A stretch of DNA of 64,000 bases from an uncultured virus (IMG/VR IMGVR_UViG_3300033463_000052) (Duplodnaviria; Heunggongvirae; Uroviricota; Caudoviricetes), in IMG/VR virus record IMGVR_UViG_3300033463_000052; one strand, written 5' to 3'. Under the pieces are notes generated by a model, which saw only the letters and a list, made by a program, of their open reading frames with translations, was not told the origin of the DNA and did no database searches. This document shows positions 5,421-20,706 of this stretch, in pieces. How positions within the stretch are numbered: position 1 is the first letter of the stretch; each line of letters starts with the position of its first letter. The position numbers and the translations under genes were made by a program.

Positions 5421-8400
5421 TATAAATCCTCCTTTTTATAACATTTAATTATTATTTCCTTTTCTCCTGTTTTTAAAAATGAACCATTTTCTGATTTTCT
5501 AAACTTATCCTTTTCTTGGAAAACACAAGTTATAATGTCGCCTATTTCTGCTTTATGTGTTGCAGACCATTTTTTATTTACTTTATATTGTTTTGAAGCC
5601 CCATAATGAATATTATATAAAGTAAATTTTTGCGTTCCAAAAGAAGAAGATTCAATATCTGTAATAATCCATGTAGTAGTTGGAATAGAAACATCAGATA
5701 ATGTTGTATACCCAAGAAATTCAATTTGCCATTTTATCAAATCAAAAACTGTAGTCTTTTCAATGTTTGATTTTTTTATCATTTTTGAAATTAATTTTTT
5801 ATTATCTATATCACGGAATTGTTTTTCTGTTTCTTTACCAGAACATTCTTTAATAATATTAATTTCTTCTTCAGTAAGTTTAGATTTTGAAATTACTTTA
5901 CTATCAATATATTTTTTATAAATTTCAAATTCTGTCATCAATTTTTTAGGAGAACCAAATTGAGAAAAATAATTTAATTTAAACAGAATTTCAATAGCTT
6001 TACTATTTATTCTATTATCAGAAATTAAATATTGATAAATTTCTGCCCTATTTTTGACACCTTTTAAACTTAATTCATAAAGAGCTTCAGGAGTAGACTT
6101 TGGCATATCTTTAATACTTGTCATTGTTTGAATAATACAATTATTTTCTTTGTCAATATTAAATTGTCTATTATCATCTCCAAATTTAATTTCTTTAAGA
6201 GAAAATCCACGTTTAATCATTTCTTGTTTAATTAAAGAAACTTTATTTTTTTCTCCTTTATTAGTAAATCTTTGAAGAACTACTTTATAAAATTCCAAAG
6301 GATAATATGCTTTAAGATAAGCAATTGTAACACTATCAATAGCCATACAATAAGCATGGGCAGAATTACAAGTTATAATTCCATCATTTGCTACAAAGTT
6401 ATGACCAACATCTTCGCTCATTTCTACATCATAAACATCTTCAATAATATTTTTTGCAATTGAAATTATTTTTTCAGTATTACATTCAATCCCATTTTCA
6501 TATTGTTTTATCCTGCCATGTTTATAATGTATTTTTTTATGGCAAGAACAACATAACCACATATAATTATCTTCAATATTATTGAATCTATTAAAATCTT
6601 TATGATGCACTTCAAATCTTTTTTCTAAAGAATAAGTTTCCCCACAACATTCGCATTGGCATAATAAATTTATTTTTTTATTTCTATAGTTTTCATAAAC
6701 AACAGAATCACCATTTATCTTTTTTTGAAAACCACATTCACCCTTTTTAGGAAAATTATTTTCAAAATTATTTGTTAATCTTGTATTAAAAAATTTTTTC
6801 TTATATTCACCTTGAACATAAAGTAAATCATTAATTTTTAAATCTTTTAATAATTTAATTCCTTCAACTGTTGGGAATTTATGGTTTTCAGTGGCCTTAA
6901 TTTTTCTTCCTGTTTCTGTTTTTATAATATAAGTTAAAGCTTTTGGTTGTTTATAAATATCAATAATCTTATTTTTATAAATTTTTCCATCTTTCATTGA
7001 TAATCCATAACCATAACCATAAAGATTATATTTATCATGCAAACTTTTATGTCCTGTACTTTTTGCATAATTTATATCGTGTTTAATCTTATACATTTCT
7101 TCTATTGTTGGAATAAAATTGCCATTATTACTTGGTTTTTTAATAATTGTATCACCAGATACACAATTAAACCCATACGCCGCACTATTTTCTACAATAG
7201 TCCAAACTTGTGTGGCTAATTCATTTGCTTTTTCTATATCGTTTGTTTCACCAGTAGCAATAATAGCAAGTGCAAAATTTTTAATAAACTTTGGTTTTGC
7301 ATCTTTGATAATATAATCTTTCTTTTTAGAAATTGCTTTTATAATTGTATAAGTATCGCTCATAGGAAATCCAGCAAATTCCAAAACCTTCATAAGACTT
7401 TCTTGATAAAGAATAAAAGAAGAAGAACAATATTCATCTTGAAGTAATTGGTCAAGTGCTTTAATGCCATATTCAAAATGCTGTCTACTTTCAAAAGTAT
7501 GATACATAGATTGAAAAGAAGGTCTTATTCCTGCTACAAATTGAGTAAGTTCTGATATATTTTTAGGTTTATATCTCATTACTTTAGCAGTTGATTTAGG
7601 TTGCTCACATTGATTAACACATTGAGTAAAACCATTAGCATAAATATCCCAAACTTTTTTATCATCTTTTACTTTTTCAAGTAATTGGTTTACAGAATAT
7701 GGTTCAATCCCAATTTCTTTATAAATATCATAAGTTAATCCAATTGAATCAACAATAAGATAATCTTGTTTTAAATAGCCAAAAGCATCAATTGTTCCTG
7801 ATTCTATAACAGCAGTTAATACTTTATTTCCAGTAGCTTCAGATTTACATAATACAATTCCTATATCTGATTCTACATCACCATCATAAGCAATCGTAGC
7901 ACATGGATGCCCTTTTATAGTATCATAAATTCCTAAATATTTTTGGCAACCTTTTACTAAATCTTTATATTGATTATCAATATAATCTTCTATATTTATA
8001 TCTTCATTTTCTTCTGCGTGTTTTTTTGCTAATTCATAAGAACTTAATTGTTTAGAAACTTCATTTGCAGTTTCAGGAGAAATACCATTTGCTCTTGCAT
8101 ACATCTTCCAAGCGGCTTTTAATTTGAGTGTACCTAAAGCAATTAAATCATAAGTACCTAAATCCCCAATTAACTCCTTTTGTGCTTGAATAAATGGTTC
8201 TCTGGAACTTACGTTGTTGTCGATATCGGGCGGCGTATGCGATTCTAAAACTCTTTCTTTGGTTAGAAATCTTTCAGAGTACATAAGAACAGAGCTATTT
8301 ACTTTATCTACTTTTGTTAATCTTAAAAGCTTATTAAGATACATAGAAACAGCAGAACCGCGCCCTGTAGGTGTTAATACTCCACCATATTTTTCTTGCC

Positions 8401-9466
8401 CATATTTCATAATATAATATGACAAAATAAAATAATCTGCCATATTACAAGCTTCAATTTCTTTTATATCATGATTTATTTCTTTTCTATATTCTTCGTA
8501 TTTATCTTTATTAATATCCCATTTTTGTTCTTTCCATTCATTTTTCAAAATAGATTCAAAAATTTTATTTCTTTCTTCTTGTGTTTTATTTTTTAAAGAT
8601 TTAATTACAGGAACTTTTAATGAACGGTCAAGAATAATATCTTCAAATTTAAAAATGATATTTGTGTTATCTATTGCTTCTTTAATTTCTTCATTTTTCA
8701 AAATGTCTTGTTCTTGGAATCTTTTAAAAAGCACATTATAAGTAGGAAAATCCATATACCAACCCTCTTCATCTTCATAACTTATATGTGCTGATTCTAA
8801 TAAATCATCCCTATCTACCATTTGATTTTCATTAATAACATGACTATCAACACCAGCAATAATAGGAATATTTAATTCATTATGCATTGTGATAATGTGT
8901 TTATTTAATTCTTTCTGTGAATCAGTATTATGTGGTTGTACTTCAAGAAAAAAATATTTAAATCTATCAGCTAAATATTGAACAAAATCGTCAATATCTT
9001 CGTATTTATTCCAAAATGCAATACAAGCAGTAGTAATCATAACATCATTACCATCAAGCATATCTAACAATTCTTTATCTATTCTTGGGCGATAATAATA
9101 TCCGTCTTTATTAGCAATAGAAATAATCTTATTAATCTGTTTTCTTCCCTTATCATTCCTTGCTAATAAAATAATATGGCAATTAGACTTGTCTTCTTCA
9201 TGTCTATCTTTAACCCAATAAGCTTCAACACCAAAAACAAATCTAATATTAGTATTGTTCTTTTTATTATATTTTTCTAAATCATCATAAGTTTTAAAAT
9301 AATTCCCAGCCCATCCATGTTCAACAGTAGTATAGATACATTCCCTGTTTCCATATCTTTTTCTTAATTCGTTCCAATAATCTTTATGAACAAGTGGACT
9401 GTCCTTTGTATAAACATTAGATAATGAAGTATGCTTATGATAATTTACCCAAATAGGTTCTTCCAT
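5420..9466 (-). CDS. dnaE: DNA polymerase III alpha subunit (family C) with intein
   Basis: PHP domain (NYHKHT, GVEAY, DSH), GRGSAV, PPDIDN catalytic motif, YQE, YGFN...SAHAY. Confidence 0.95.
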   Translation of the reverse strand: MEEPIWVNYHKHTSLSNVYTKDSPLVHKDYWNELRKRYGNRECIYTTVEHGWAGNYFKTYDDLEKYNKKNNTNIRFVFGVEAYWVKDRHEEDKSNCHIILLARNDKGRKQINKIISIANKDGYYYRPRIDKELLDMLDGNDVMITTACIAFWNKYEDIDDFVQYLADRFKYFFLEVQPHNTDSQKELNKHIITMHNELNIPIIAGVDSHVINENQMVDRDDLLESAHISYEDEEGWYMDFPTYNVLFKRFQEQDILKNEEIKEAIDNTNIIFKFEDIILDRSLKVPVIKSLKNKTQEERNKIFESILKNEWKEQKWDINKDKYEEYRKEINHDIKEIEACNMADYFILSYYIMKYGQEKYGGVLTPTGRGSAVSMYLNKLLRLTKVDKVNSSVLMYSERFLTKERVLESHTPPDIDNNVSSREPFIQAQKELIGDLGTYDLIALGTLKLKAAWKMYARANGISPETANEVSKQLSSYELAKKHAEENEDINIEDYIDNQYKDLVKGCQKYLGIYDTIKGHPCATIAYDGDVESDIGIVLCKSEATGNKVLTAVIESGTIDAFGYLKQDYLIVDSIGLTYDIYKEIGIEPYSVNQLLEKVKDDKKVWDIYANGFTQCVNQCEQPKSTAKVMRYKPKNISELTQFVAGIRPSFQSMYHTFESRQHFEYGIKALDQLLQDEYCSSSFILYQESLMKVLEFAGFPMSDTYTIIKAISKKKDYIIKDAKPKFIKNFALAIIATGETNDIEKANELATQVWTIVENSAAYGFNCVSGDTIIKKPSNNGNFIPTIEEMYKIKHDINYAKSTGHKSLHDKYNLYGYGYGLSMKDGKIYKNKIIDIYKQPKALTYIIKTETGRKIKATENHKFPTVEGIKLLKDLKINDLLYVQGEYKKKFFNTRLTNNFENNFPKKGECGFQKKINGDSVVYENYRNKKINLLCQCECCGETYSLEKRFEVHHKDFNRFNNIEDNYMWLCCSCHKKIHYKHGRIKQYENGIECNTEKIISIAKNIIEDVYDVEMSEDVGHNFVANDGIITCNSAHAYCMAIDSVTIAYLKAYYPLEFYKVVLQRFTNKGEKNKVSLIKQEMIKRGFSLKEIKFGDDNRQFNIDKENNCIIQTMTSIKDMPKSTPEALYELSLKGVKNRAEIYQYLISDNRINSKAIEILFKLNYFSQFGSPKKLMTEFEIYKKYIDSKVISKSKLTEEEINIIKECSGKETEKQFRDIDNKKLISKMIKKSNIEKTTVFDLIKWQIEFLGYTTLSDVSIPTTTWIITDIESSSFGTQKFTLYNIHYGASKQYKVNKKWSATHKAEIGDIITCVFQEKDKFRKSENGSFLKTGEKEIIIKCYKKEDL
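6365..7165 (-). mobile_element. 267-aa intein in DnaE with internal HNH-type nuclease domain
   Basis: Begins CVSGDT after YGFN; block B IKATENHKF; ends VYDVEM...HNFVANDGIITCN followed by Ser; internal CECC...EVHHKD...LCCSCHKKIH. Confidence 0.92.
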
Positions 9467-10620: not shown

Positions 10621-11466
10621 TTAAATATCAGTATTATTAAAAATCATATCCTGCGACATAACATTTCTAATTTTATTATCACAAGACTTAACATATCTGG
10701 AAGTAACAGCAATATTAGAATGACCAAGCGCATCCCTAATAGTAGCCAAATCTACCCCATGTTCCAAAGAATTAGTTGCAAAAAACATTCTAATCCAATG
10801 TGGGGAAATACTATTTGCATAAGGGAGATTAGCTTTTTTAGCCGCACGAATAAGTGACCTTCTAAGACAACTTTCATCAGCAGTAACAAAAAGTTTATCT
10901 GTACCTTTTTTATTTTTATAATTCTTAGAAAGGTAATCATCAATATAATACTTGGCAGTATCATTAACAAAAATCTTTCTTTCCTTATTACCCTTACCTA
11001 CAATAACAATTGACCTATCTGTAGCAAGCGCAATTTTATATTCTTCCAAAGTAATATTTGCCATTTCAGTATAACGCAATCCAGTAGAAGCCATAAGCGC
11101 AACAATAGCTTTACCTTCAGCAGTATACATATTTTTAATAATATTCTTCATATCTTCAGAAGAAACATACTGTTTTTCTTTAGGATTATTCTTAACTTTT
11201 TCAAGTTCCAAAGCAGGATTGGAATGAATAACTTCAATCTTTTTAAGATACTTAAAGTAACTTTTGACAGCAGAAATTTTCAAATTAATAGTTGCAGGAG
11301 AATTATTAGAAATCTTCTTCAGCCATTCAAGCAAATCCACATATTTAATTTCATTTTCTTCTTTCCCAATAATATTAAGCATTTCGTTAATATGGGTAAT
11401 GTAACTTTTAATAGTGTTTTCAGATTTATGCATTGCTTCAAGATAAGAAATATAAGTATTCTCCAT
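10621..11466 (-). CDS. XerC/D-like tyrosine recombinase
   Basis: SENTIKSY, TGLRYTE, GKGNKER, HWIR, LGHSNIAVTSRY catalytic set. Confidence 0.93.
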   Translation of the reverse strand: MENTYISYLEAMHKSENTIKSYITHINEMLNIIGKEENEIKYVDLLEWLKKISNNSPATINLKISAVKSYFKYLKKIEVIHSNPALELEKVKNNPKEKQYVSSEDMKNIIKNMYTAEGKAIVALMASTGLRYTEMANITLEEYKIALATDRSIVIVGKGNKERKIFVNDTAKYYIDDYLSKNYKNKKGTDKLFVTADESCLRRSLIRAAKKANLPYANSISPHWIRMFFATNSLEHGVDLATIRDALGHSNIAVTSRYVKSCDNKIRNVMSQDMIFNNTDI

Positions 11467-11488: not shown

Positions 11489-11788
11489 TTATTTCTTTTC
11501 TACTTTATACCCATTTTCTTCAAGAAATTTAATTGCATTTAATATTTTATTATTTAAATTATCTTCTTTTGCTTGTTTCCTTATGTAATCATAAAAATCA
11601 CATTTATTTTTATCCCCACCACAAGAACATTCTTCTTGCTCTTTCGTACCAGCGCACCATCCATATTCTTCAATTCTATAATCGCTTAAATAATAATTAG
11701 ATATATTTGAATATATTTTTCTACTTCCTATATTATAACAATAACATGGAGAAAAGTTTATGTCATTTGAATAATTTATTTTTATCAC
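11489..11788 (-). CDS. Cys-rich hypothetical protein (shares domain with 38170..38481)
   Basis: CAGTKEQEECSCGGDKNKCDFY. Confidence 0.5.
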   Translation of the reverse strand: MIKINYSNDINFSPCYCYNIGSRKIYSNISNYYLSDYRIEEYGWCAGTKEQEECSCGGDKNKCDFYDYIRKQAKEDNLNNKILNAIKFLEENGYKVEKK

Positions 11789-11845
11789 TTCCTTTAATTT
11801 AATTGAATTATATCACAAAAAATAAAATTTGTCAAGCATAAAATT

Positions 11846-11875
11846 TTATCCCAAGATATTTTTATCTTGGGATAA
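11846..11875 (-). terminator. probable terminator at end of tRNA operon
   Basis: Perfect 13-bp inverted repeat ttatcccaagata/tatcttgggataa with 4-nt loop. Confidence 0.55.
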
Positions 11876-11948
11876 TATATCTAAACAATGAACCATTAGC
11901 TATTTACGGATTGTATAAATGCTTTTTTAGGAACATTGTTGTTTTATA

Positions 11949-12023
11949 TGGCTGGGGCGGGTTGAGTTGAACAACCTTACTATGGGTCAAAGCCATATAT
12001 CCAAGCCGTTAGATTACGCCCCA
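11949..12023 (-). tRNA. tRNA-Gln(UUG)
   Basis: Cloverleaf, anticodon loop CT-TTG-AC, encoded CCA. Confidence 0.85.
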
Positions 12024-12194
12024 ATATATAAAAACTTTTCTCCTAAATAAGATTCTAAAATAACGCCCTAAAGAATTTTAAAATCTATACAACGCTTGAA
12101 AAGTTGATTTGTTGATTTTATGTATTCGTGCGCACTCGTTTCACCTGCTAATAGGGATAGCTTTTGGGAACTAACAATAATCAACAGCGTTTCT

Positions 12195-12269
12195 TGGAGC
12201 CTCCATACAGAATCGAACTGTAATCTAAGCATTACAAGTGCCTTGTAATATCCTTTATACTATAGAGGC
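12195..12269 (-). tRNA. tRNA-Thr(UGU)
   Basis: GCCTCTA/TGGAGGC acceptor, CT-TGT-AA, TTCGA, CCA. Confidence 0.9.
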
Positions 12270-12274
12270 AAAAA

Positions 12275-12469
12275 TTAATTACATTTTTTATATAAATCTA
12301 TTGGACTATTCGCAGTACCAATTTTTTCATATCCATTTTTTAATATTTCCCAAAGAGTAAATTTTTCTTTCTTTGTATTTTGAGATATAATATATTCATT
12401 TCCATATTCAGAAATATATCTTACACCATAACCATCTTCAGATTTAGGAATTTGATTTACAATACTCAT
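12275..12469 (-). CDS. hypothetical protein
   Basis: 64 aa ORF directly after a sigmaA promoter. Confidence 0.6.
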   Translation of the reverse strand: MSIVNQIPKSEDGYGVRYISEYGNEYIISQNTKKEKFTLWEILKNGYEKIGTANSPIDLYKKCN

Positions 12470-12777
12470 ATATTATACCACACTTTTTATTATTTGTCAA
12501 GTATTTTTTTTAGAAGAAGGATGATTTAACTGCTATCCACAGAGAACTTCATCAAACTTGTGAATCCTATATATATACTTCTTCTTATATAAATCGACAG
12601 TTTTATTTCTACTTTGCCAAAGCTTCATTAAAACTGTCTTAGGTTTAACCACTCAACTATAGTCAGCTTATAGGCGGCAAACTCTACAAACCAACCATTT
12701 CAAAGGCAAGGATTTTAGCCTGTTTACAATCCCAACTTGGTACGCTTAGACCTATGACCATAGGCGTATTGGGATAT

Positions 12778-12853
12778 TGGAGTGGATAATGGGAATTGAA
12801 CCCACAGCATCCAGATTGGAAGTCTGGCACTCTGCCAATTGAGTTATATCCAC
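12778..12853 (-). tRNA. tRNA-Gly(UCC)
   Basis: CCAGA-CTTCCAA-TCTGG anticodon arm, TCCA end. Confidence 0.92.
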
Positions 12854-13144
12854 ATATTTTAAAATAGGTTTTTATCCTTCTATGCAGGATGCCTATAAGC
12901 ATTTCAACCTATCAACCCACTTTTCTTTTTCCTCGGACTGGATAAGGAACCTACGCTTACCAGCGGCAGTTTTTTGAAATGATACTTGCAAACATTAGTA
13001 GAATATTTTATTACCTTTTGTTATTACTACCATTCTAACGCAATTACACAAAGTAACTTGAGGGGCTTCTTTTCAGGACTTATTTAAACCCATACGACTG
13101 TTCCGCTAAACGCTATTCACTTGCGGTGTCCACGTTGAATTGAT

Positions 13145-13260
13145 ATGTAATCGTTACCCCATGTCCAGCTTTTCACTTATCATGCGTTGATTTGAATAAG
13201 CAGTTTACCCTATCATTTCAAGATACTAACTTATTTCTCTTGGATTATTCACGATTACAT
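13145..13260 (-). ncRNA. putative structured ncRNA directly 3' of tRNA-Glu
   Basis: Perfect 10-bp closing stem atgtaatcgt/acgattacat; no ORF. Confidence 0.55.
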
Positions 13261-13337
13261 TGGTGATGCTATGGGGACTTGAACCCCAAAATTCCAGCGT
13301 GAAAGGCTGGTGACTTTACCTATTCGTCTATAGCACC
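13261..13337 (-). tRNA. tRNA-Glu(UUC)
   Basis: CCAGC-CTTTCAC-GCTGG anticodon arm, CCA. Confidence 0.92.
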
Positions 13338-13492
13338 ATAATTAAACTCCCCCACGAACAACACATTAGTCTGTTCATTATCTTTGTCTTGATATTATCT
13401 CAAATGGGCTGGTATGTGATTTTCCAGCCTTGTGGGGCTTGAAAGTTCACTTAAGAGCTTACAAATCAAAATCGTCCAATTGTTACCATTCC

Positions 13493-13649
13493 ATATGCCC
13501 TTATGTTCTGGTGTCTGGTGTTATGGACAATTTACCAGCACTTTTCCCCTCAATGGGCGGGAAGTCCAGCTACTCTCTGTTAAGGTCGTTGCTCAAATTT
13601 CGGATGTTACAGCATCCTCACCGTAATCTGTAACTTACGGATGGCATAT
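13493..13649 (-). ncRNA. putative ~157-nt RNA with kissing loop and pseudoknot
   Basis: 7-bp closing stem; hairpin loops GUUACAG and CUGUAAC complementary; UGGAC/GUCCA pairing. Confidence 0.6.
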
Positions 13650-13709
13650 TCGTATTTCATTTGTTTTCCTTATTGGAATGGCACAAAGCAATACTGAAAT
13701 AAAAGCCTC

Positions 13710-13785
13710 TGGTCTGAGTGGGGAGACTCGAACTCCCGGCATCGTGATCCCAAATCACGCATTCTACCAACTGAATTACACCCAG
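13710..13785 (-). tRNA. tRNA-Pro(UGG)
   Basis: CGTGA-TTTGGGA-TCACG, TTCGA, CCA. Confidence 0.92.
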
Positions 13786-13800
13786 ATATTTTTAAAAAAG

Positions 13801-13877
13801 TGGTAGACGGTTGGGGACTTGAACCCCAATCTTTGGATTATAAGTCCAAGGCTTCTAACCGATTGAGCTAACCGTCT
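13801..13877 (-). tRNA. tRNA-Ile(UAU)
   Basis: TTGGA-CTTATAA-TCCAA, full cloverleaf, ACCA end. Confidence 0.9.
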
Positions 13878-14278
13878 AAATCAATTTTTTTATTTCTGAG
13901 GGATACCAAGTTTTTCCTCTGCCCTTCCCTTTATTAGCACCCCTATAATTTTTAGTTAAAGAATAACAATTTGGGTATAAAAGAATTAAATTTTCTGGAC
14001 GATTATTTTTATAATTCCCATCTATATGTTCAACTTCTAAAGGTATTAATCCTGTAAATGGATTTCTTTCACCCCATCCCCCATCCACATTTACTACATT
14101 TACGGTCTGGTATGTTGCCCCAATGGTCAGTTTTATGAAAACCATCTATTTCACCACTTAACAATTTTCTTTCCCATTCTTTTCTTTCAAATTCATGTTG
14201 ACATTTACTACAACAATATTTTCTTCCTTTATAAGTTTTTTCAATTTCTTTCCTACAATTTAAACATTTTATATTCAT
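13876..14278 (-). pseudogene. frameshifted HNH endonuclease
   Basis: Two overlapping ORFs joined at a GGATGGG duplication (~14073-14086); LYPNCY in place of the usual LCPNCH. Confidence 0.75.
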
Positions 14279-14380
14279 TTTTTAATCTCACCCATTTAAA
14301 GATTTATTTTTATAGGTGAGATAGAAGAAATAGGCTTCTATCTCTAAATATAATAGTTTGCAACCTACTATAACCCTATA
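14279..14380 (-). ncRNA. structured 5' leader of homing endonuclease gene (copy 2)
   Basis: Loop CCUAUUU (14328-14334) pairs with AAAUGGG (14291-14297) at the SD. Confidence 0.65.
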
Positions 14381-14382
14381 TG

Positions 14383-14455
14383 TGGATGCAGGAATAGGAA
14401 TCGAACCTATGGAATTTAGTTTATGAGACTAAAGTGAATACCAATTCTTCCTGCT
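14383..14455 (-). tRNA. atypical tRNA with CAU anticodon (Met or Ile2)
   Basis: TTTAGT-CTCATAA-ACTAAA, ATAGG-TTCGATT-CCTAT, CCA; short D arm, unpaired first position. Confidence 0.7.
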
Positions 14456-14498
14456 ATATTATAGGATTCATTTTTCAGAATCCTATTTTTATAAAATT

Positions 14499-15266
14499 TC
14501 ATTCTTTTTTGTTTATACACTTAAATAAATGTGTTTTTTCATTATAGATTAAGAAAGCATACTTACTTGTATGAAATCTTTTATGGTCAGAAGAAGTTTG
14601 AAAAACAATTAAATTATTAAATTTATTATTATGTTTATTTTCATCAATATGATGAACTGTATTTTCTTTTTTTAATTTTCCATTTAACAATTTATTTGCA
14701 ATATAATCGTGTTCAAAATAAGATGGAAAATCACAAATTTCTTTTAAACTTCTTTTCTTTATAATTATATATTCTTTATTATTATTTGTTTCATAATAAG
14801 GAATTTTTATATTTAAAGTTTCTATATAATCAAACCATTTTTTAATTTCTTCTTTATTATGATTTTCAAATATATGATAAAAATTTTTATCTAAATAGCT
14901 CCAAGTTGTATTTCTTTTATACCCATTTTCATATTTATTTTTCATTGTTTGGACTTGTTTTGCTATTTCTTTACAATTTTCTTTTGTTTTCCCTTTTCTA
15001 TTATTTTTAATATAAATAGCAAATTTATCTACATCTTTTCGATTTGGGTTATATTTACATCTTAATTCATGTTGTGCTAAACTATTTTTATTTTTGCATT
15101 CTTTTTTACAAAATTTACAATATAAATCATCATGGTCTAAATGATATGAATTAATTTTATCATTTTTATAACCATTTATACAAGCATTTTCGTGTTTTTT
15201 AATACAAGCAACATCAATTAATCTTCCACAATTTTTACAAGCTACTTTTTTATGTATATTATACAT
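14499..15266 (-). CDS. HNH endonuclease with N-terminal Zn-finger-like repeats
   Basis: CKNC..H..C, CKFC..HELRC, VHHIDENKHNNKFNNL...HKRFH. Confidence 0.8.
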   Translation of the reverse strand: MYNIHKKVACKNCGRLIDVACIKKHENACINGYKNDKINSYHLDHDDLYCKFCKKECKNKNSLAQHELRCKYNPNRKDVDKFAIYIKNNRKGKTKENCKEIAKQVQTMKNKYENGYKRNTTWSYLDKNFYHIFENHNKEEIKKWFDYIETLNIKIPYYETNNNKEYIIIKKRSLKEICDFPSYFEHDYIANKLLNGKLKKENTVHHIDENKHNNKFNNLIVFQTSSDHKRFHTSKYAFLIYNEKTHLFKCINKKE

Positions 15267-15368
15267 TTATTTTTCCTCCTACATAGGTAATTATTTTATA
15301 TAATAAACAGTAATTTTAATAATGTAGGTATTAAAAAACATCCGTCAATGCTGTCCTGTTTATTATAT
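15267..15368 (-). ncRNA. structured 5' leader of homing endonuclease gene (copy 3)
   Basis: 13-bp closing stem; loop CCUACAU (15322-15328) pairs with AUGUAGG (15278-15284) overlapping AGGAGG. Confidence 0.7.
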
Positions 15369-15369
15369 T

Positions 15370-15446
15370 TGGTAGCGCCCCCGAGATTCGAACTCGGCCT
15401 GTAACGATTTTAAGTCGTTTGTCTCCTGCCTCTGGACTACGGCGCC
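15370..15446 (-). tRNA. tRNA-Leu(UAA), short variable arm
   Basis: AACGA-CTTAAAA-TCGTT, TTCGA, ACCA; 77 nt. Confidence 0.88.
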
Positions 15447-15607
15447 ATATCTAACTTACTTTTATATTATATCACAATTTTCTTCATTTGTCAAGAACTT
15501 TTTTTATGGCGACTCGTTCCTCACACAGTTCATTAAGGTAAGCGGATTTCTAACCACCATTGTGTATAAATGCTGTTCACTTCATTTGACTTCTATATTA
15601 TATCACA

Positions 15608-15847
15608 TTACTTGTTATTTGTCAAGTATTTTTTTACAATTTTACTTATTTTATGTTGAGTATATTTATATTTTATTTTATCCATAATCTTATATCTACG
15701 AAAACCAAGACAGTTGCCATTTTCATCTATGTGGTCACACATTAAACCTCCAAAATAATAACAATAATCACAATATTTTTTTCGTAAGATATAATTATTT
15801 ATAAATTCTATAATATTATATTTTAAATTAAAAATTATTTTATTCAT
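15608..15847 (-). CDS. Cys-rich hypothetical protein
   Basis: 79 aa ORF in operon. Confidence 0.5.
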   Translation of the reverse strand: MNKIIFNLKYNIIEFINNYILRKKYCDYCYYFGGLMCDHIDENGNCLGFRRYKIMDKIKYKYTQHKISKIVKKYLTNNK

Positions 15848-15849
15848 TT

Positions 15850-16032
15850 CTAAAATTGAAAAATTTCATCAATACATTCAATTATCTTTTCAATTCTTTT
15901 AATTTCAAAACTATCTAAATTTTTACTATTGTATTTTAAAAAATTAATTAAAGGGAGTCTTACACCAACCGCTAAATAATTTCTTAAATAATCGTTACAA
16001 ATCCAATTACAAATTTTAAATTTTAATCCCAT
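15850..16032 (-). CDS. hypothetical protein
   Basis: 60 aa coupled ORF. Confidence 0.5.
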   Translation of the reverse strand: MGLKFKICNWICNDYLRNYLAVGVRLPLINFLKYNSKNLDSFEIKRIEKIIECIDEIFQF

Positions 16033-16033
16033 A

Positions 16034-16321
16034 TTACTTCCTTACATAATGTTTCTTCCAAAATTTATTTAAAAATTCTTCTTTTGATTTATAACTTTCT
16101 TTTAAATATTTATATCTATTTAAATCATTTAATGCTTCATACTTACTCCATCTTGAAATATAATCATGAATTTCCCATGAATTAAATAATCTTCTATATT
16201 TATTCCCTTTTGAAAAATGATTATTTTTTCTTCTTACTTTTTTATTGGCTAATCTTTTCCAATATTTAGCCCCATTAGGACGGTCTGTACATACAGGATT
16301 TTTCTTATAACTTCTTGACAT
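16034..16321 (-). CDS. highly basic hypothetical protein
   Basis: MSRSYKK...KRLANKKVRR...SWEIHDY. Confidence 0.65.
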   Translation of the reverse strand: MSRSYKKNPVCTDRPNGAKYWKRLANKKVRRKNNHFSKGNKYRRLFNSWEIHDYISRWSKYEALNDLNRYKYLKESYKSKEEFLNKFWKKHYVRK

Positions 16322-16343
16322 ATGTCAACCATCCCATCTTTTT

Positions 16344-16580
16344 TTATTCTAAAATACTATCTTTTACATTATTTTTTATATAATCAACTGCTTCTGTGAG
16401 TGTATATTCCCATCTTACAAAATTCCATGTTACATCATAATATCTATATGAATTAAATCTTTTATAATCTCTTTTTTCTTTATATATACAATAAATCATT
16501 TCATCATTATTAAAAAATGATTTTCTTTTAATAATAATAATATGACCATTTTTTGATTCCCAAACAATTTTTTCTTTCAT
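16344..16580 (-). CDS. hypothetical protein
   Basis: 78 aa coupled ORF. Confidence 0.5.
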   Translation of the reverse strand: MKEKIVWESKNGHIIIIKRKSFFNNDEMIYCIYKEKRDYKRFNSYRYYDVTWNFVRWEYTLTEAVDYIKNNVKDSILE

Positions 16581-16581
16581 A

Positions 16582-16773
16582 TTAAAAAATGTAATAAAAC
16601 AACGCCTTTAACGTTTTCTTCCAATTATTATTTTTCCATTCATATCCATTACAATATAATTTATTATTTATTTGTGTAACTTTATGAGTATATTTCCCAT
16701 TTTTTAATTCAGGTAAATTAATTTCTTTACCATTTTCATAAAATTTTCCTAATGCACTATTAAAATATATCAA
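16582..16773 (-). CDS. hypothetical protein
   Basis: 63 aa coupled ORF. Confidence 0.5.
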   Translation of the reverse strand: MIYFNSALGKFYENGKEINLPELKNGKYTHKVTQINNKLYCNGYEWKNNNWKKTLKALFYYIF

Positions 16774-17093
16774 ATAAAATCATCCTTATAATTTTCAATT
16801 TCATAATTCATAGAATCAATTTTTCTTTTATCAGAAGGTTTATAATTTATAGCAGGACAATAATTTTTTCCTTTTTTTCTTGTTTTAGGTGAACACCAAG
16901 GACAACTACAATGAATTTTATTTTTTGAATATTCATGTAAATTATTGTACATACCAATTTGTATATAAGATTGCCAACTACAAAAGGGATTATTATATTC
17001 TTTTAAATTATAACAGCTTACAGCTAAATCAATATTTCTTTTTCTTTCTGCTTTAGAAAAATCTTTTTTTCTTCTCCATGCTCTATTTCTCAT
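16770..17093 (-). CDS. basic Zn-binding hypothetical protein
   Basis: MRNRAWRRKK...YSKNKIHCSCPWCS. Confidence 0.65.
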   Translation of the reverse strand: MRNRAWRRKKDFSKAERKRNIDLAVSCYNLKEYNNPFCSWQSYIQIGMYNNLHEYSKNKIHCSCPWCSPKTRKKGKNYCPAINYKPSDKRKIDSMNYEIENYKDDFI

Positions 17094-17171
17094 ATAAAAT
17101 CCCCTTTATAATAATTTTTAGATTTAAGGGGGTAAAATTCCCTTTTTAAAAAAGTTTTACCCCCTTAAAAA

Positions 17172-17477
17172 TTAAAACCAAAAACTGTCAAGTAAATCAA
17201 AAAGATTCAAAGAATCTTCTACTTCAGTATCAAAAGTCATGTGAAACGAACCATAGTCATTGATAAACTTATTAAGCTTTTCACGATAAACCTTATCTGC
17301 TTCAAAACGAGCCTTATAAGCATCTTCGACTTCCTTTGCACGAACCTTGCGTGTTTCAGAAAGCTTCTTCTTTTCAGCTTCCTTTACCGTAATAGCTTCA
17401 TCATACTTCTTTTCTGCTTCCAGACATTCATCAACTGTAGCGTAATACTTGTTAGTCTTTTCACTAAAAATCTTCAT
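17172..17477 (-). CDS. helical hypothetical phage protein
   Basis: 101 aa, strong SD, downstream hairpin terminator (~17124-17167). Confidence 0.7.
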   Translation of the reverse strand: MKIFSEKTNKYYATVDECLEAEKKYDEAITVKEAEKKKLSETRKVRAKEVEDAYKARFEADKVYREKLNKFINDYGSFHMTFDTEVEDSLNLFDLLDSFWF

Positions 17478-17537
17478 TTGTAAATTCCTTCCTTTACATG
17501 AAAAATAATTATATTTACCCCACGAATCTTAGGGGTA

Positions 17538-17613
17538 TGGTGTGTCTGGAGGGACTTGAACCCTCGACCCCATGATTAAAAGTCATGTGTTCTACCATCT
17601 GAACTACAAACAC
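17538..17613 (-). tRNA. tRNA-Lys(UUU)
   Basis: CATGA-CTTTTAA-TCATG, CCA. Confidence 0.92.
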
Positions 17614-17655
17614 ATATATATACTGTCAAAAAAAATAATTGACAGTATATTTTTT

Positions 17656-19059
17656 TTAATGGCTTAAAAGAAACATTGCAAGAAATAGAATGTCAATAAC
17701 CCAAGTTGAAATACGAATTTCTTGAATCTTTCCAACGAAAATTTTAATAAAAGTATAGGCAAGGATGCCAATACCAATACCATTACTGATACTATAACTA
17801 AATGCCATAATGGTAACAGTTAAGAATGCTGGAATTGCAATTTCTGGATTTTCCCATTCAATATCTTTCAGAGAACCAATCATTAATGCACCTACATAAA
17901 TAAGAGCCGCTGAAGTTGCCGCACTTGGAATTAATGAAGCAATTGGGGCAAAGAACATTGCAATGAAGAATAAACCAGCAGTAGTTATAGCAGAAAGACC
18001 AGTTCTTCCACCTTCTGCAACACCAGCAGATGATTCAACAAAAGTAGTAACAGTAGAAGTGCCACATATAGCACCAGTACAAGTAGCCAGCGCATCACTT
18101 AGCATGGCTTTATTTAAATTAAGAACTTCGCCATTTTCTGTCATAAGTCCACCACGGGAACAAGCACCATAAAGTGTACCTAAAGTATCAAACATATCAA
18201 CAATACAAAAGGCAATCATTGTAGTAAGCAAACTTAAGACAAAATTAGCTTGTCCATGAATTAAAATATAATTGCTGAAATCAAAACCAGATTTAAAAAC
18301 TGCAAATAAAGATTCCCTACCAAATGCCTTAAAAGCTGTTGAAGGACTCATAGTAAGAAAACTAAATCCATCATAAAAACCTTGAATAGTAAGCCCACCA
18401 AGATAATAAAGAACTGTACCAATAACAATGCCAATTAATACTGCACCTTTCTTTTTAAAAGCAACAAGGGCAGAAATAATTAAAATTGTAATAATTGTAA
18501 CAAGCATTGGCATAATTGTTTCCCAATTAGCAGAACCACTAAAGATATTAAATGAAGACATAGTGGAAGCTGTTGAAGCATCAGGAACAATAATTCCAGC
18601 AGATTGTAAGCCAATATAAGCAATAAACAAACCAATACCAGCAGAAATAGAATTTTTAACTGCTTTTGGAATAGCATTGAAAATAATTTTTCGTAAACCA
18701 GTTATGGTCAACAAAGTAAAAACAATGCCATCGAATAATACCATCACTAATGCATTAGCATAAGTAAATCCAAGCCCAAGACATACAGAATAAACAAAAT
18801 AAGCATTTAATCCCATCCCTGAAGCTTGTGCCAAAGGAAGATTTGCAAGCAATCCAATTAAAAGCGAACCAACACAAGCCGAAATTGCTGTTGCAATATA
18901 CATTCCTTCATAACTTACATCAGGTAAAGCAGAAAACATACCAGCATTTACAAACAAAATATAAGCCATTGCCATAAATGTTGTAATACCAGCTAAAATT
19001 TCTGTACGGATGGTAGTATTACGTTCTTTTAAATTAAAAAAACTTTCCATTAACACCAA
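17656..19059 (-). CDS. NCS2/AzgA-family purine permease (PbuG-like)
   Basis: TEILAGITTFMAMAYILFVN, GMGLNAYF, DMFDTLGT, GTSTVTTFVESSAGVAEGGRTGL; many hydrophobic segments. Confidence 0.93.
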   Translation of the reverse strand: MVLMESFFNLKERNTTIRTEILAGITTFMAMAYILFVNAGMFSALPDVSYEGMYIATAISACVGSLLIGLLANLPLAQASGMGLNAYFVYSVCLGLGFTYANALVMVLFDGIVFTLLTITGLRKIIFNAIPKAVKNSISAGIGLFIAYIGLQSAGIIVPDASTASTMSSFNIFSGSANWETIMPMLVTIITILIISALVAFKKKGAVLIGIVIGTVLYYLGGLTIQGFYDGFSFLTMSPSTAFKAFGRESLFAVFKSGFDFSNYILIHGQANFVLSLLTTMIAFCIVDMFDTLGTLYGACSRGGLMTENGEVLNLNKAMLSDALATCTGAICGTSTVTTFVESSAGVAEGGRTGLSAITTAGLFFIAMFFAPIASLIPSAATSAALIYVGALMIGSLKDIEWENPEIAIPAFLTVTIMAFSYSISNGIGIGILAYTFIKIFVGKIQEIRISTWVIDILFLAMFLLSH

Positions 19060-19096
19060 CCTTTTTATTAAAATTTAAATGCAGGATATTCCTGCA

Positions 19097-19188
19097 TGGC
19101 GGCGCTGGTAGGATTTGAACCCACGCACAGCTATTAACTGCCTTTCGATTTTCAAGACCGACCCCTTAAGCCCCTTGGGTACAGCGCC
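19097..19188 (-). tRNA. tRNA-Ser(UGA)
   Basis: TCGGT-CTTGAAA-ATCGA, long variable arm, GCCA end. Confidence 0.92.
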
Positions 19189-19407
19189 AAGTAAAATGGC
19201 AACTTGCTCGGCTGGATTTTAACTAACTAATCCATTTGTCAAGTTATTACTTCTGCACTTCCATATACGCCAAAGACAGAACCAATATTAAATTCAAAAT
19301 GGAGGTTGTTGTTCTCTATCCATCACACATCCAGAACAACATAAGAGGTTGTATGTTTAATCTACTTGTTTATTATAACATATTTATTTTAATTTGTCAA
19401 GTAGATA

Positions 19408-19731
19408 TTAAATATTTCTTTGGAAATTATAAAGCACACGCTGAGCTTCATTATACTTCCAGCAAGATTCATCATAATACTTATTCATTTCATCAAAATG
19501 CTTCTGTGCTTCAAAAAGCAACTGTCTTGCTTCAATATACTTATTATAAGCCCTATTCATTCGCTTTTCTGCAACCTTAAAATCACATCTAAGCTGTGCA
19601 AGTCTTTCACCAATTTCAATACTGAAATTATCCTTGGGTGAACACTTTGCAATTCCCCTAACAACTTTCTTTGCATAAGTTGAAAGACAAATAATCTTGT
19701 TGTTGTTCCTAATAAACCTATACTTTGCCAT
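19408..19731 (-). CDS. conserved phage hypothetical protein
   Basis: STYAKKVVRGIAKCSPKDNFSIEIGERLA; own promoter and SD. Confidence 0.7.
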   Translation of the reverse strand: MAKYRFIRNNNKIICLSTYAKKVVRGIAKCSPKDNFSIEIGERLAQLRCDFKVAEKRMNRAYNKYIEARQLLFEAQKHFDEMNKYYDESCWKYNEAQRVLYNFQRNI

Positions 19732-19788
19732 AAATTTTAATTCCTTTCTTAATTTGTATATGTATTATATCATAAAAGTTTAAATTTG

Positions 19789-20706
19789 TCAAGTATTATT
19801 TTTCAAAAGAAAATTAAACATTTTACTTACATCATTGTCAAATTCTTCACAATCAAATCTTTCTCTACAACAACTATTTTTACAAAACTTTTTTTCAACT
19901 AAATCAATATACATACTGGCAGAATTAAATTCACCATCAATTCCATCATCACCCATAAAGAAGGAATCCCATTCTTTTTTAGTGAGAATATTTTCTAAAT
20001 TAAGTTGATTGATTGCAAGATTATCAAAACTAATAATTGAATAATAACTTTCTTCGATACAATTTGCTATAAATACTTTCCATGAAGCAATCATAAAATC
20101 AATTCTATCTTGATTATTATTATAAAAAGTAATACCTCTACGAAAATGTTTATAGCCTAATACTAAGATTTTAATATCTTTATTTGCTAACTTCTTTAAA
20201 ACTTCTAATGGTGTAACACCAATAATAACATGACATACTGCACCAACATCTTTAATTAAACTAATTTCTTCATTATTAATATCAAAAACAGAAACACCAA
20301 TTCCATTTATAAGTTTTTCATTATAAAGATATTTAATATATTCTATATTTTTTACAAAATGAAATTTATTTACAGTAATATTACAAATAATATTTTTTCT
20401 TTTACATTCTTTTAAGAAAATTTCAAGATGTGGATGGGAAAGTGGATTACCACCACCAATAGCAAGTTCAGTATAAGAAGGAATAGAATTAATAATATCG
20501 TTTCCAAAAACAAGCAAATCACTATGTTTCCCATCTTGTGTAGAATTTTCATGGCACATGGGACAACCCATGTCGCATTGATTTGTAATTTTTATATCCA
20601 TACTTTCTACTCTGGTAGGAATATAAATATCAGATTTATTATAACGAATTTTAGTTCCATCATCTAAAATCATTACTGTATATGTACCATTTTTATAAGC
20701 AAACAA
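19789..20706 (-). CDS. radical SAM enzyme
   Basis: CDMGCPMC (CxxxCxxC), AIGGGNP, NITVN. Confidence 0.9.
   Translation of the reverse strand: MFAYKNGTYTVMILDDGTKIRYNKSDIYIPTRVESMDIKITNQCDMGCPMCHENSTQDGKHSDLLVFGNDIINSIPSYTELAIGGGNPLSHPHLEIFLKECKRKNIICNITVNKFHFVKNIEYIKYLYNEKLINGIGVSVFDINNEEISLIKDVGAVCHVIIGVTPLEVLKKLANKDIKILVLGYKHFRRGITFYNNNQDRIDFMIASWKVFIANCIEESYYSIISFDNLAINQLNLENILTKKEWDSFFMGDDGIDGEFNSASMYIDLVEKKFCKNSCCRERFDCEEFDNDVSKMFNFLLKNNT

Follow-up and report, generated by a model that had tools for sequence, protein, structure and literature searches.

To our knowledge, stable RNAs in phage tRNA clusters have been recognised since T4, and very few of them have been defined. tRNA-like handles such as mascRNA of MALAT1, viral tRNA-like structures and minihelix substrates recruit RNase P or RNase Z and thereby free a neighbouring RNA. 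Large ornate RNAs are represented by GOLLD and ROOL, of which GOLLD is the larger. Both frequently lie close to tRNAs and in prophages, and ROOL, which is of rumen origin, averages 581 nt (PMC5737381). RNAC and RNAD of T4 are non-tRNA small RNAs from the phage tRNA cluster, whose biological roles are given as unknown (PMC3014915). Gut phages use theta ribozymes at tRNA 3' ends; these are minimal HDV-like ribozymes that cleave at G1 and have an obligatory C in J4/2, and just 4.5% of the associated tRNAs encode CCA (PMC10879173).

In this study, we analysed the spacers of a tRNA array in an uncultured rumen phage of the Caudoviricetes (IMG/VR record IMGVR_UViG_3300033463_000052). The whole stretch of 64,000 nucleotides is called the window. 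Two elements of the array, A and B, are conserved folded RNAs, and both folds are backed by compensatory changes. They are RNA genes absent from Rfam 15, and each is carried by many uncultured gut phages. Element U is probably a third structured RNA gene beside them. The spacers were read on the minus strand, because all ten window tRNAs lie on it (ARAGORN). The main features are listed below; the tRNAs given were identified by ARAGORN, Rfam and 3' ends.

11807-11835, minus strand: perfect promoter (12/12 hexamer positions, TG) for the ORF 11489-11788 and the integrase 10621-11466
11846-11875, minus strand: terminator-like hairpin, 13-pair stem then AAUUUUAU, shuffle z -3.37; operon end
11949-12023, minus strand: tRNA-Gln, encoded CCA
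12195-12269, minus strand: tRNA-Thr, encoded CCA
12472-12500, minus strand: perfect sigma-70-type promoter (TTGACA, 17 nt, TATAAT, TG; 12/12 hexamer positions)
12778-12853, minus strand: tRNA-Gly, encoded CCA
12950-13140, minus strand: element A, about 170-190 nt, CCA-anchored, two pseudoknots
13141-13260, minus strand: element U, tRNA-like and stem-closed, directly after the CCA of tRNA-Glu and ending where A begins
13261-13337, minus strand: tRNA-Glu, encoded CCA
13338-13469, minus strand: 3' flank of B, reaching tRNA-Glu; first ~35 nt conserved with one relative
~13470-13709, minus strand: element B, ~240 nt, multi-branched, kissing loops and a pseudoknot
13710-13785, minus strand: tRNA-Pro, encoded CCA
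15466-15494, minus strand: perfect promoter (12/12 hexamer positions, TG), upstream of tRNA-Leu

CCA is encoded in 10/10 window tRNAs, and ..AUAU precedes 7/10. The promoter at 15466-15494 is the likely start of a transcript through Met, Ile, Pro, B, Glu, U, A and Gly, and no terminator-like site was found on the minus strand between this promoter and 11875. At 11846-11875 a hairpin containing GC is followed by a U-rich run on the minus strand, as in an intrinsic terminator. The promoter at 12472-12500 serves the ORF 12275-12469, tRNA-Thr and tRNA-Gln; its 40-nt promoter word was found several times in the viral contig G002 too. The gene 10621-11466 was assigned to integrases by both Pfam and PHROGs. 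We lean towards reading the whole region as a minus-strand stable-RNA operon with perfect consensus promoters, in which two or more genes, and probably three, code for structured RNAs other than tRNAs. A first, sequence-only reading had proposed non-tRNA RNA genes within a polycistronic tRNA array, and this core idea is borne out by the conservation and compensatory changes of A and B. Its observation that the spacers are richer in GC was also confirmed: in 200-nt windows GC is 0.36-0.44 over 12600-13900 vs 0.16-0.31 in the coding flanks of this ~30% GC phage. It had further described the spacers as free of credible ORFs. This holds inside the units that it listed, where no credible gene was found, but not throughout: a 64-aa ORF (12275-12469, minus strand) with its own perfect promoter occupies part of the Thr-Gly gap outside those units, and a 67-aa ORF (13430-13633, plus strand) runs antisense to element B. 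No frame is open across the 36 family members in the B core (minimum 5-16 codons), and none is open throughout all family members in the A core.

Element A, the best-conserved element of the array, was missing from the units of the sequence-only reading. It comprises the following parts.

13133-13136 with 13093-13096, minus strand: 5' domain, helix P1
13128-13131 with 13076-13079, minus strand: 5' domain, helix P2
13103-13126, minus strand: 5' domain, P3 hairpin
13088-13091 (GGGU) with 13063-13066 (GCCC), minus strand: proposed pairing
13057-13068, minus strand: 3' domain, invariant AAGCCCCUCAAG
13053-13057 with 13010-13014, minus strand: 3' domain, helix S1
13039-13047, minus strand: 3' domain, GUAAUUGCG
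13032-13037 with 12999-13004, minus strand: 3' domain, helix S2
13015-13020, minus strand: 3' domain, CAAAAG
12950-12969, minus strand: possible end hairpin

A is present in 51 viral contigs and 3 MAG contigs. Over 105 nt, the copy in the 30%-GC window phage shares 79-81% identity with those of phages of 54-58% GC. A covariance model (R1) matches 12967-13143 with 118.9 bits (E 2.6e-38), the sole copy in the window; a second copy suspected in the spacer of B on account of short common words was therefore dropped. Across 44 distinct sequences, 90.8% of the cells pair, vs 22-43% with the partners slid, and 21/30 pairs show a compensatory change; the observed value was reached in 0/500 shuffles. 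Eight helices are supported, two pseudoknots among them. The P3 hairpin is absent in L113, closed by a GCAA tetraloop in L040 and ~110 nt long in G002, with the core fixed throughout. Two further proposed pairings, GGGU with GCCC and CA/AUU (the slash marks the junction) with AAUUG, are nearly invariant among relatives, so covariation cannot probe either of them.

A starts exactly at the end of an acceptor stem with NCCA. In 47/49 distinct contexts A comes directly after an acceptor 3' strand of 7 nt with its discriminator base and CCA, and the complementary acceptor 5' strand lies 48-142 nt upstream. A follows an encoded CCA in 48/49 contexts; in the window UCA stands in place of CCA. The unit upstream can be an ordinary tRNA, a long tRNA of odd form or a minihelix of 48-68 nt without anticodon arm. 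In other phages A is bracketed by tRNAs, and in 14/43 loci shown an ARAGORN tRNA begins 110-117 nt past the A pattern. A blastn search of 50,697 GenBank phage records gave one match for A, which is metagenomic, and none in a cultured phage.

In the window the unit upstream of A is element U. It is closed by a 10-bp stem (13251-13260 with 13145-13154, minus strand) and followed by A-UCA at 13141-13144. U thus carries an acceptor-type end of closing stem, discriminator base and UCA, which is CCA in its single homologue in G002; the latter is closed by AUGUAAUUAG/CUAAUUACAU, then A-CCA. Three closing pairs are changed on both sides between the two, and GAAAGCUGG is common to both. The borders proposed by the sequence-only reading, 13145-13260, are exact in this case (shuffle z -2.65). 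Neither ARAGORN nor the Rfam tRNA model RF00005 called a tRNA at 13141-13260. The U-A junction pattern occurs among viral contigs only in the window phage and G002. A looser pattern gave nine metagenome matches, none with the A core after it, and these were attributed to chance; an integrase search for closer relatives of the window phage returned its own contig only. Three RNA-library contigs span the U-A junction, so a cut at this site is incomplete, or these contigs derive from DNA. An eight-letter word, AGCUGGAC, had been noticed in two units, and it is indeed present at 13163-13170 in U and at 13564-13571 in B. Chance alone would yield about 0.6 shared 8-mers, yet each copy lies in a conserved block.

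Element B is organised as follows.

13674-13682 with ~13484-13492, minus strand: outer helix, window only
13643-13649 with 13493-13499, minus strand: inner helix
13621-13640, minus strand: hairpin 1, loop kisses hairpin 2
13602-13617, minus strand: hairpin 2, loop kisses hairpin 1
13584-13594, minus strand: hairpin 3
13564-13570, minus strand: GCUGGAC
13544-13563, minus strand: hairpin 4
13511-13541, minus strand: hairpin 5
13483-13511, minus strand: invariant 29-mer
13473-13479, minus strand: tail, pairs with the hairpin 5 loop to form the pseudoknot

The corresponding covariance model (R2) matches 13457-13652 with 160.4 bits (E 7.8e-44). In 32 sequences 87.9% of the cells pair, vs 36-51% when slid, and compensatory changes were found in 19/28 pairs, including 6/6 kissing-loop pairs. 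Complementarity of at least 5 nt between the hairpin 5 loop and the tail occurs in 13/34 own pairs vs 62/968 mismatched pairs. This loop-only version was used instead of a comparison with the whole hairpin 5, which did not discriminate (23/34 own vs 446/1090 crossed). B was detected in 41 viral contigs (37 distinct), always inside tRNA arrays; in L149, L150, L152 and L166 it takes up the 255-285 nt that separate two tRNAs. L167 aligns with the 3' flank of B to ~13440 and diverges beyond. No match to B was found by blastn in the 50,697 GenBank phage records. The sequence-only reading had placed a unit at 13493-13649, which captures only the inner helix of B, and a separate one at 13653-13701, which is in fact the 5' extension of the same element.

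B-like contigs are deep in the assemblies of two cattle-gut RNA libraries from one study. A contig of 207 nt (13493-13699) has a depth of 104 and one of 159 nt a depth of 183, where each depth is the sum over every B-bearing phage in the sample; neighbouring contigs of the same run have depths of 3-6, about 20-fold lower. These assembled contigs revealed no processed ends; those that end at 13493 do so within the invariant B core, where assemblies break, and parts of the stretch without RNA-contig cover were not read as silence.

Folding energy relative to shuffles had been suggested as a check on the whole array. Among whole spacers the Pro-Glu spacer alone stands out (z -3.44; the other three -0.46 to -1.46), while the nested folds of A (z -0.21) and B (z -0.90) are no better than shuffles. 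Shuffle-based folding energy would have wrongly dismissed both families.

The window and 11 related loci were searched against Rfam 15, with the gathering score as well as E <= 10 or E <= 1 as the cut-off. This search, also suggested beforehand, returned only tRNAs and sub-threshold noise, and no family matches A, B or U at E <= 10. A group I intron was rejected for A and B, with no Rfam match at E <= 10 and with complete tRNAs, not split exons, as flanks. The group I words AAUUGCG and AAGUCCU.AAGU, RNase P, M-box and glmS were likewise dropped, since neither a model match nor a consistent topology was obtained. Like RNAC and RNAD of T4, A and B are small RNAs encoded inside a phage tRNA cluster, and B-like contigs are deep in RNA libraries. 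They are larger than the T4 RNAs and pseudoknotted, and, unlike those, A is fixed to a CCA end. No T4-type match for A or B was found by blastn among the phage records, and a further query matched Escherichia phages via its tRNA parts only. U and the minihelices of 48-68 nt resemble tRNA-like handles in that an acceptor-type stem with NCCA borders another RNA. Unlike those handles, they stand upstream of the passenger RNA and inside the tRNA operon of a bacterial virus, where cutting by either RNase P or RNase Z is putative. A full-text literature search found no prior description of A or B. The A core was not found in the searchable part of the supplement of PMC10690425; A or B may sit among its 8,495 unnamed candidates.

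The best reading of these observations, we infer, is that tRNA processing sets A, B and U free as passenger RNAs and that the site of action of A is the CCA end. Host tRNA-processing enzymes would excise the three elements from the precursor. RNase P would cut the 5' end of each tRNA, ahead of which lies a short AU-rich leader, and probably also the 5' end of U, because its 10-bp stem and A-(C/U)CA tail mimic an acceptor arm. This second cut would also give tRNA-Glu its finished CCA-OH end. A would serve as a 3' trailer anchored at the CCA end, and its invariant AAUUG could pair with CA/AUU across the junction. Potentially, A acts in cis by presenting the junction for a precise cut, then persists as a compact pseudoknotted RNA. 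B might stand alone as an abundant RNA that acts in trans; the strong conservation of its unpaired nucleotides suggests a specific partner or chemistry.

It is tempting to speculate that A itself is a new class of self-cleaving ribozyme that cuts precisely behind the CCA of the tRNA upstream and would thereby be the CCA-specific equivalent of the HDV-like theta ribozymes. The latter are a precedent at the tRNA 3' ends of gut phages (PMC10879173), and both are structured RNAs directly at a tRNA 3' end in uncultured gut Caudoviricetes. The exact position of A at NCCA fits this idea, as do its many invariant unpaired nucleotides, and a structured trailer right at CCA would presumably otherwise stop exonucleolytic trimming. 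The 5' domain of A also shares the nested, crossed helix order of theta and HDV ribozymes: P1 (columns 15-18/68-71) crosses P2 (20-33/86-89) and encloses P3 in a nested double pseudoknot. P1, P2 and P3 pair in 93-98% of cells, with compensatory changes in P1 and P3. However, the position of the catalytic C of J4/2 is variable in A: the bases before GUCC, the 3' strand of P2, are CGAA in the 57%-GC group, GGAA in L021, L038, L091 and L097, and AUAA in the window. A follows CCA with an A, not a G, as its first nucleotide, and P1 begins 4 nt past the junction. A further differs from theta in its ~170 nt, its second pseudoknotted domain and its encoded CCA. None of the ribozyme families in Rfam 15 matches A, and the HDV-type models matched neither the window (E <= 10) nor six A loci (E <= 1). 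RNA-library contigs cross the junction of A, and self-cleavage would leave a 2',3'-cyclic phosphate on CCA, which requires repair before charging. We consider self-cleavage by A unlikely for these reasons. Still less probable, in our view, is that A, B and U are putative decoys or inhibitors directed against those anti-phage systems of the host which attack tRNAs or detect phage RNA, a role also offered by the sequence-only reading. The three elements share their transcript with phage tRNAs, only the acceptor end of a tRNA is left in U and the minihelices, and the elements are gained and lost between relatives like accessory counter-defence genes. That the sequences of A and B are so highly conserved among unrelated phages, however, fits a conserved cellular partner equally well as a defence protein.

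Two other explanations are very improbable. Conserved blocks could in principle be DNA-level features such as integrase attachment sites beside tRNA genes or mobile-element remnants: the array has an integrase gene 500 nt away, relatives have gained or lost units, and A is spread over phages of very different GC content. The number of compensatory pairs in both elements is not expected of DNA sites, their strand is always that of the tRNAs, and the deep B-like contigs come from RNA libraries. The other idea, raised by the sequence-only reading, is that the spacers together make up a single large ornate RNA like GOLLD or ROOL; it is barely credible. GOLLD and ROOL are, like A and B, complex pseudoknotted RNAs of no known function near phage or prophage tRNAs (location near tRNAs and in prophages: PMC5737381), and ROOL and the window phage both come from the cow rumen. 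A and B, however, measure 170-250 nt each, where GOLLD or ROOL would be a single RNA of about 580 nt or more with many multistem junctions. The models of these RNAs, which we take to be RF01998 and RF03087, matched neither positions 11500-20000 of the window at E <= 10 nor L137 and ten other loci. Unlike parts of one RNA, A and B are separate genes: A was found in 0/5 records of B phages and B in 0/5 records of A phages, B as well as A is bracketed by tRNAs in other phages, and in the window tRNA-Glu separates the two.

With processing of passenger RNAs by host enzymes as the preferred reading, a bolder one was also considered. In it, the CCA 3' ends of phage tRNAs would be produced by A as an RNA of a new kind, either catalytic or guiding an enzyme, and B would be a second new functional RNA class. 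In this case A would pair across the CCA/A junction and either cut itself or direct a host nuclease there, and B would be ribozyme-like or bind a ligand or protein, in carriers that are tailed gut phages of 45-170 kb. We regard this combination as rather unlikely. If true, phage tRNA arrays would hold a stock of undescribed functional RNA classes. A and B are two families with well-supported, pseudoknot-rich folds and near-invariant unpaired nucleotides, common to dozens of uncultured gut and rumen phages of very different base composition; such sharing and conservation are usually a sign of a precise biochemical task. A stays strictly attached to an acceptor stem and CCA, also where decay has reduced the 'tRNA' to a minihelix, which leads to a testable hypothesis on the 3'-end maturation of phage tRNAs.

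Apart from A, B and U, the spacers contain small stem-closed units, listed below. Their endpoints were chosen at stems, so that their shuffle z-scores are biased downward.

11884-11940, minus strand: hairpin after tRNA-Gln, z -3.59
12033-12105, minus strand: Thr-Gln spacer, z -2.35
12110-12186, minus strand: Thr-Gln spacer, z -1.35
12512-12585, minus strand: directly upstream of the promoter 12472-12500, z -0.43
12596-12638, minus strand: downstream of tRNA-Gly, z -3.46
12729-12775, minus strand: downstream of tRNA-Gly, z -2.13
12864-12912, minus strand: spacer 12854-12949 between A and tRNA-Gly, z -2.25
13350-13437, minus strand: in the 3' flank of B, z -4.29
13653-13701, minus strand: 5' extension of B, z -0.75

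The sequence-only reading had seen an array of eleven like units. Their closing stems are real in the sense that ten units show them in their MFE structures, and the stem of 13493-13649 also appears in folds. The array as such does not stand: 12512-12585 adjoins a promoter and is not an independent RNA, one unit is part of B, and seven hairpins lack comparative support. The remaining small units are probably operon punctuation (promoter surroundings, terminator) or else putative hairpins. Whether the seven hairpins (11884-11940, 12033-12105, 12110-12186, 12596-12638, 12729-12775, 12864-12912 and 13350-13437) are chance or mere spacer structure with no specific role appears to us an even question. 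Blastn of every spacer against ~200 related loci matched only A, B, tRNAs and promoter words; the spacer 12854-12949 has no similar sequence in the related loci compared. In a pattern scan with 13350-13437, 31/32 matches were unrelated, GC-rich and protein-coding-looking. Whole-spacer z-scores of -0.46 to -1.46, among them -0.46 for the Thr-Gln spacer (12024-12194), and the choice of endpoints also speak for chance. On the other side, z is <= -2.6 in four units, U counted, and hairpins may act in processing or stability. The stretch 12586-12777 (minus strand) holds the hairpins 12729-12775 and 12596-12638 with a long hairpin in between; one related DNA contig is without them, 12579 being joined to 12775 (shorter side 31 letters). 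In 12110-12186, related contigs from two runs show one compensatory pair: both partners of the predicted pair 12177/12118 are changed, the changes at 12171 and 12168 are compatible with the fold, and that at 12179 breaks a pair.

The spacers between the tRNA genes at 11880-13705 contain two conserved folded RNAs, element A (12950-13140, minus strand) and element B (about 13470-13709, minus strand), both in the same orientation as the tRNAs of a promoter-to-terminator unit. A third element, U (13141-13260, minus strand), is probably also a conserved folded RNA co-oriented with the tRNAs of this unit. Spacers, elements and operon are read on the minus strand throughout. The ten tRNA genes that ARAGORN calls in the window share the minus strand, and five of them fall inside the region considered here; all ten encode CCA, and ..AUAU precedes seven of them. 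The tRNA genes listed here are ARAGORN calls with which Rfam agrees, and the four promoters match the consensus at 12/12 positions and carry a TG extension.

11949-12023, minus strand, tRNA-Gln
12195-12269, minus strand, tRNA-Thr
12778-12853, minus strand, tRNA-Gly
13261-13337, minus strand, tRNA-Glu
13710-13785, minus strand, tRNA-Pro
15625-15597, minus strand, perfect promoter TTGACA-17-TATAAT with TG
15494-15466, minus strand, perfect promoter TTGACA-17-TATAAT with TG
12500-12472, minus strand, perfect promoter TTGACA-17-TATAAT with TG, driving a 64-aa ORF, tRNA-Thr and tRNA-Gln
11835-11807, minus strand, perfect promoter TTGACA-17-TATAAT with TG
11875-11846, minus strand, terminator-like hairpin after tRNA-Gln

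The sequence-only reading had divided the spacers into eleven stem-closed small-RNA units. Several of its observations hold: GC content is higher in the spacers (0.36-0.44) than in the coding flanks (0.16-0.31), the listed units are without a credible gene, the closing stems are present in predicted folds, and the word AGCUGGAC is found at both stated positions. The z-scores of the units, whose endpoints had been picked at stems, range from -0.43 to -4.29; of the whole spacers the Pro-Glu spacer alone beats shuffled controls (z -3.44, others -0.46 to -1.46). The proposed unit 12512-12585 (z -0.43) lies immediately upstream of the promoter at 12500-12472, and the promoter word of roughly 40 nt has many copies in the related contig G002. 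Seven other hairpin units are without similar sequence in the related loci or the pattern scan; their role, if any, may lie in processing or stability. In related contigs unit 12110-12186 displays one compensatory pair, two compatible changes and one disruptive change.

Apart from tRNAs, a blastn search of the region against GenBank phages gave one match, 85 nt within the Glu-Gly spacer, and this part of A shares 82.6% identity with an unannotated phage scaffold from human faeces (57% GC). Four pattern scans detected A in 10, 44, 10 and 51 viral contigs, and a further pattern scan in 3 of 185,579 species genomes, all three being roughly 70-kb MAG contigs. The model of A, R1, finds a single copy in the window (12967-13143, 118.9 bits). 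All 44 distinct sequences found were aligned, with the window standing for its twin L002 and L101, cut by a contig end, omitted. In the 5' domain helix P1 is crossed by P2 and encloses the variable P3; in the 3' domain S1 surrounds hairpin S3, whose loop pairs downstream (S2), and an end hairpin follows. Pairing is possible in 90.8% of cells, compared with 22-43% after a shift of the partners by 1-3 columns, and both sides have changed in 21 of 30 pairs; none of 500 shuffles reached the observed values. For S2 alone, eight or more distinct complementary word pairs are seen. The size of P3 differs: L113 lacks it, L040 has a hairpin with a GCAA tetraloop, and in G002 and its kind it reaches about 110 nt. 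The long unpaired words AAGCCCCUCAAG, (U/C)AAUUGCG and UGGG are invariant, and CAAAAG deviates in only a few sequences (to CUAAAG or CAAGAG). AAUUG is also complementary to CA|AUU, which spans the junction at the start of A; because AAUUG never varies, this pairing is putative. By nested minimum-energy folding A does not outscore its shuffles (z -0.21); the folding-energy comparison by which the sequence-only reading could have been refuted would have failed for A.

A is anchored at an acceptor-NCCA end. In 47 of 49 distinct contexts its start comes immediately behind an acceptor 3' strand of 7 nt, a discriminator base and CCA (in the window UCA); the complementary acceptor 5' strand is found 48-142 nt upstream. 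The exceptions are L021, which has CCA but lacks a perfect 7-bp partner, and L108, without the start motif. Among the loci listed, tRNA-Thr forms the upstream unit in 21 of 43; others are tRNA-like with a GCAGACG acceptor stem, acceptor-closed units of 92-142 nt, or minihelices of 48-68 nt without an anticodon arm. Thus, the conserved part is the acceptor end and not a working tRNA. An ARAGORN-called tRNA starts 110-117 nt past the A pattern in 14 of the 43 loci listed, where A occupies the entire gap of ~170 nt between two tRNAs. The minihelices (L024, L043 and L031) combine a GCAGACG acceptor stem with a T-arm-like hairpin and ACCA; the 92-142-nt units (L073, L121, L055, L101 and L091) are uncalled by ARAGORN. 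Both may be odd or decayed tRNAs.

Directly before A the window carries, instead of a tRNA, the 120-nt unit U (13260-13141), which starts right behind the CCA of tRNA-Glu, has a 10-bp closing stem and ends in A-UCA. The arrangement is the same in G002, a viral contig of rumen type with 51 kb and about 40% GC, with the order promoter, small hairpin ending in ACCA, U, A and tRNA-Gln; there the closing stem of U is AUGUAAUUAG/CUAAUUACAU, followed by A-CCA. Between the two, both sides have changed in three closing pairs and in an inner stem. As this comparison covers two examples, we consider U a probable, not a proven, conserved RNA.

The Pro-Glu spacer matches G002 at 67-69% over about 230 nt. 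With an 18-nt word from an invariant 29-mer, B was found in 41 viral contigs (37 distinct, 4.8 to 172 kb), nearly all with ARAGORN-called tRNA genes no more than 700 nt away; no match was obtained in 50,697 GenBank phage records. In L149, L150, L152 and L166 the gap between neighbouring tRNAs that holds B measures 255-285 nt. The model of B, R2, hits the window once (13457-13652, 160.4 bits) and G002 once. In an alignment of 32 of 36 distinct cores (L140, L142, L163 and L165, with 20-60-nt insertions, omitted), 87.9% of cells pair vs 36-51% when slid, both sides have changed in 19 of 28 pairs, and the kissing loops of hairpins 1 and 2 covary in 6/6 pairs. Hairpin 5 pairs through its loop with the tail after GGAAUGG, and about 15 different complementary word pairs are seen by eye. 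Perfect loop-tail runs of 5 nt or more are present in 13 of 34 own pairs vs 62 of 968 with unrelated tails; a cruder first control gave no discrimination. The nested fold energy of B is unremarkable (z -0.90). The next called tRNA downstream of B is tRNA-Glu(UUC) in at least about 16 of the 41 loci (L138-L178), window and G002 included. In L150, a locus from a phage with B, the tRNA array contains a weak match to YrlA (Y RNA-like) at 271-371, minus strand (35.3 bits vs a gathering score of 69).

The sequence-only reading had also considered GOLLD or ROOL RNAs, or parts of one large RNA. Neither idea was borne out: Rfam 15 yields tRNAs alone in the window and eleven related loci, and A and B are separate, occurring together only in the window phage and G002. 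R1 detected A in none of 40 B loci and none of five whole B-phage records (four at least 99% complete), and R2 detected B in none of 54 A loci and none of five whole A-phage records. The 5' domain of A has the helix order of HDV-like ribozymes, but lacks their obligatory cytosine and G1 cleavage site. According to PMC10879173, only 4.5% of the tRNAs adjoining theta ribozymes, minimal HDV-like ribozymes near gut-phage tRNAs, encode CCA, whereas A accompanies CCA-bearing tRNAs. Precedents exist in the unexplained small RNAs RNAC and RNAD of the T4 tRNA region, the textbook case (PMC3014915), in GOLLD and ROOL as ornate RNAs near phage tRNAs (PMC5737381) and in theta ribozymes as structured RNAs at phage tRNA 3' ends (PMC10879173). 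No description of A or B was found in full-text literature searches, with the unnamed candidates of PMC10690425 covered in part; therefore, we regard both as new families within a known kind of feature.

The expression evidence comes from contigs assembled from public runs. B contigs are present in two metatranscriptome runs on cattle gut, both from one study:

13493-13699, RNA library, 207 nt, 8 other letters and 2 gaps, depth 104
13493-13651, RNA library, 159 nt, depth 183

Contigs on the adjacent spacer, tRNA-Glu, U and A reach a depth of 2-6 in the same runs, and a DNA run is without such a contrast between B and its neighbours. The depth of B, which is a sum over all B-bearing phages, fits a stable and abundant RNA; DNA carry-over might still be the source of these contigs, whose ends at 13493 lie inside the invariant core, where assemblies break. 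RNA-library contigs bridge the U|A junction, so either this bond is incompletely cut or the contigs derive from DNA. Potentially, tRNA-processing enzymes would release A, B and U, and an RNase P cut at the 5' end of U would also complete the CCA end of tRNA-Glu. It is tempting to speculate that the role of A is to mark or present the CCA|A bond; B might work in trans.

Two cattle-gut metagenome runs contain nearly the entire stretch; in IMG/VR it is without a close relative except the phage's own 35-kb contig. In DNA contigs 13142 is joined to 13474 and 12579 to 12775, and 13264-13342 is replaced by 552 letters; thus, units come and go between relatives. The joint 13142/13474 coincides with the inferred borders of B and A and, with a shorter side of only 28 letters, lends them weak support. 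In related DNA contigs of a gut run 12579-12775, 13142-13474 and 13263-13343 are missing or replaced. Judged from these assemblies, the spacer units and tRNA-Glu behave as cassettes gained and lost among close relatives.

The genes around the array are phage-like, including a DnaE-type polymerase with an intein, an integrase and HNH endonucleases. The DnaE-type (Pol III alpha) polymerase gene (5420-9466, minus strand) is split by an intein with an HNH-like piece (Pfam Intein_splicing, residues 820-1032). Two overlapping short ORFs at 13876-14278 (minus strand; 89 and 69 aa), both matching HNH endonuclease families, lie between tRNA-Met and tRNA-Ile and possibly represent a single broken homing-endonuclease gene. 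A radical-SAM protein gene (19789-20706, minus strand; Pfam PF04055, PHROG 'Fe-S oxidoreductase') adjoins tRNA-Ser. The 467-aa ORF at 17656-19059 (minus strand) matches Pfam Xan_ur_permease (5.3e-34) and also PHROG 27398 'tail protein' (4.8e-108); either this PHROG label looks wrong or phages commonly carry a nucleobase permease as cargo.
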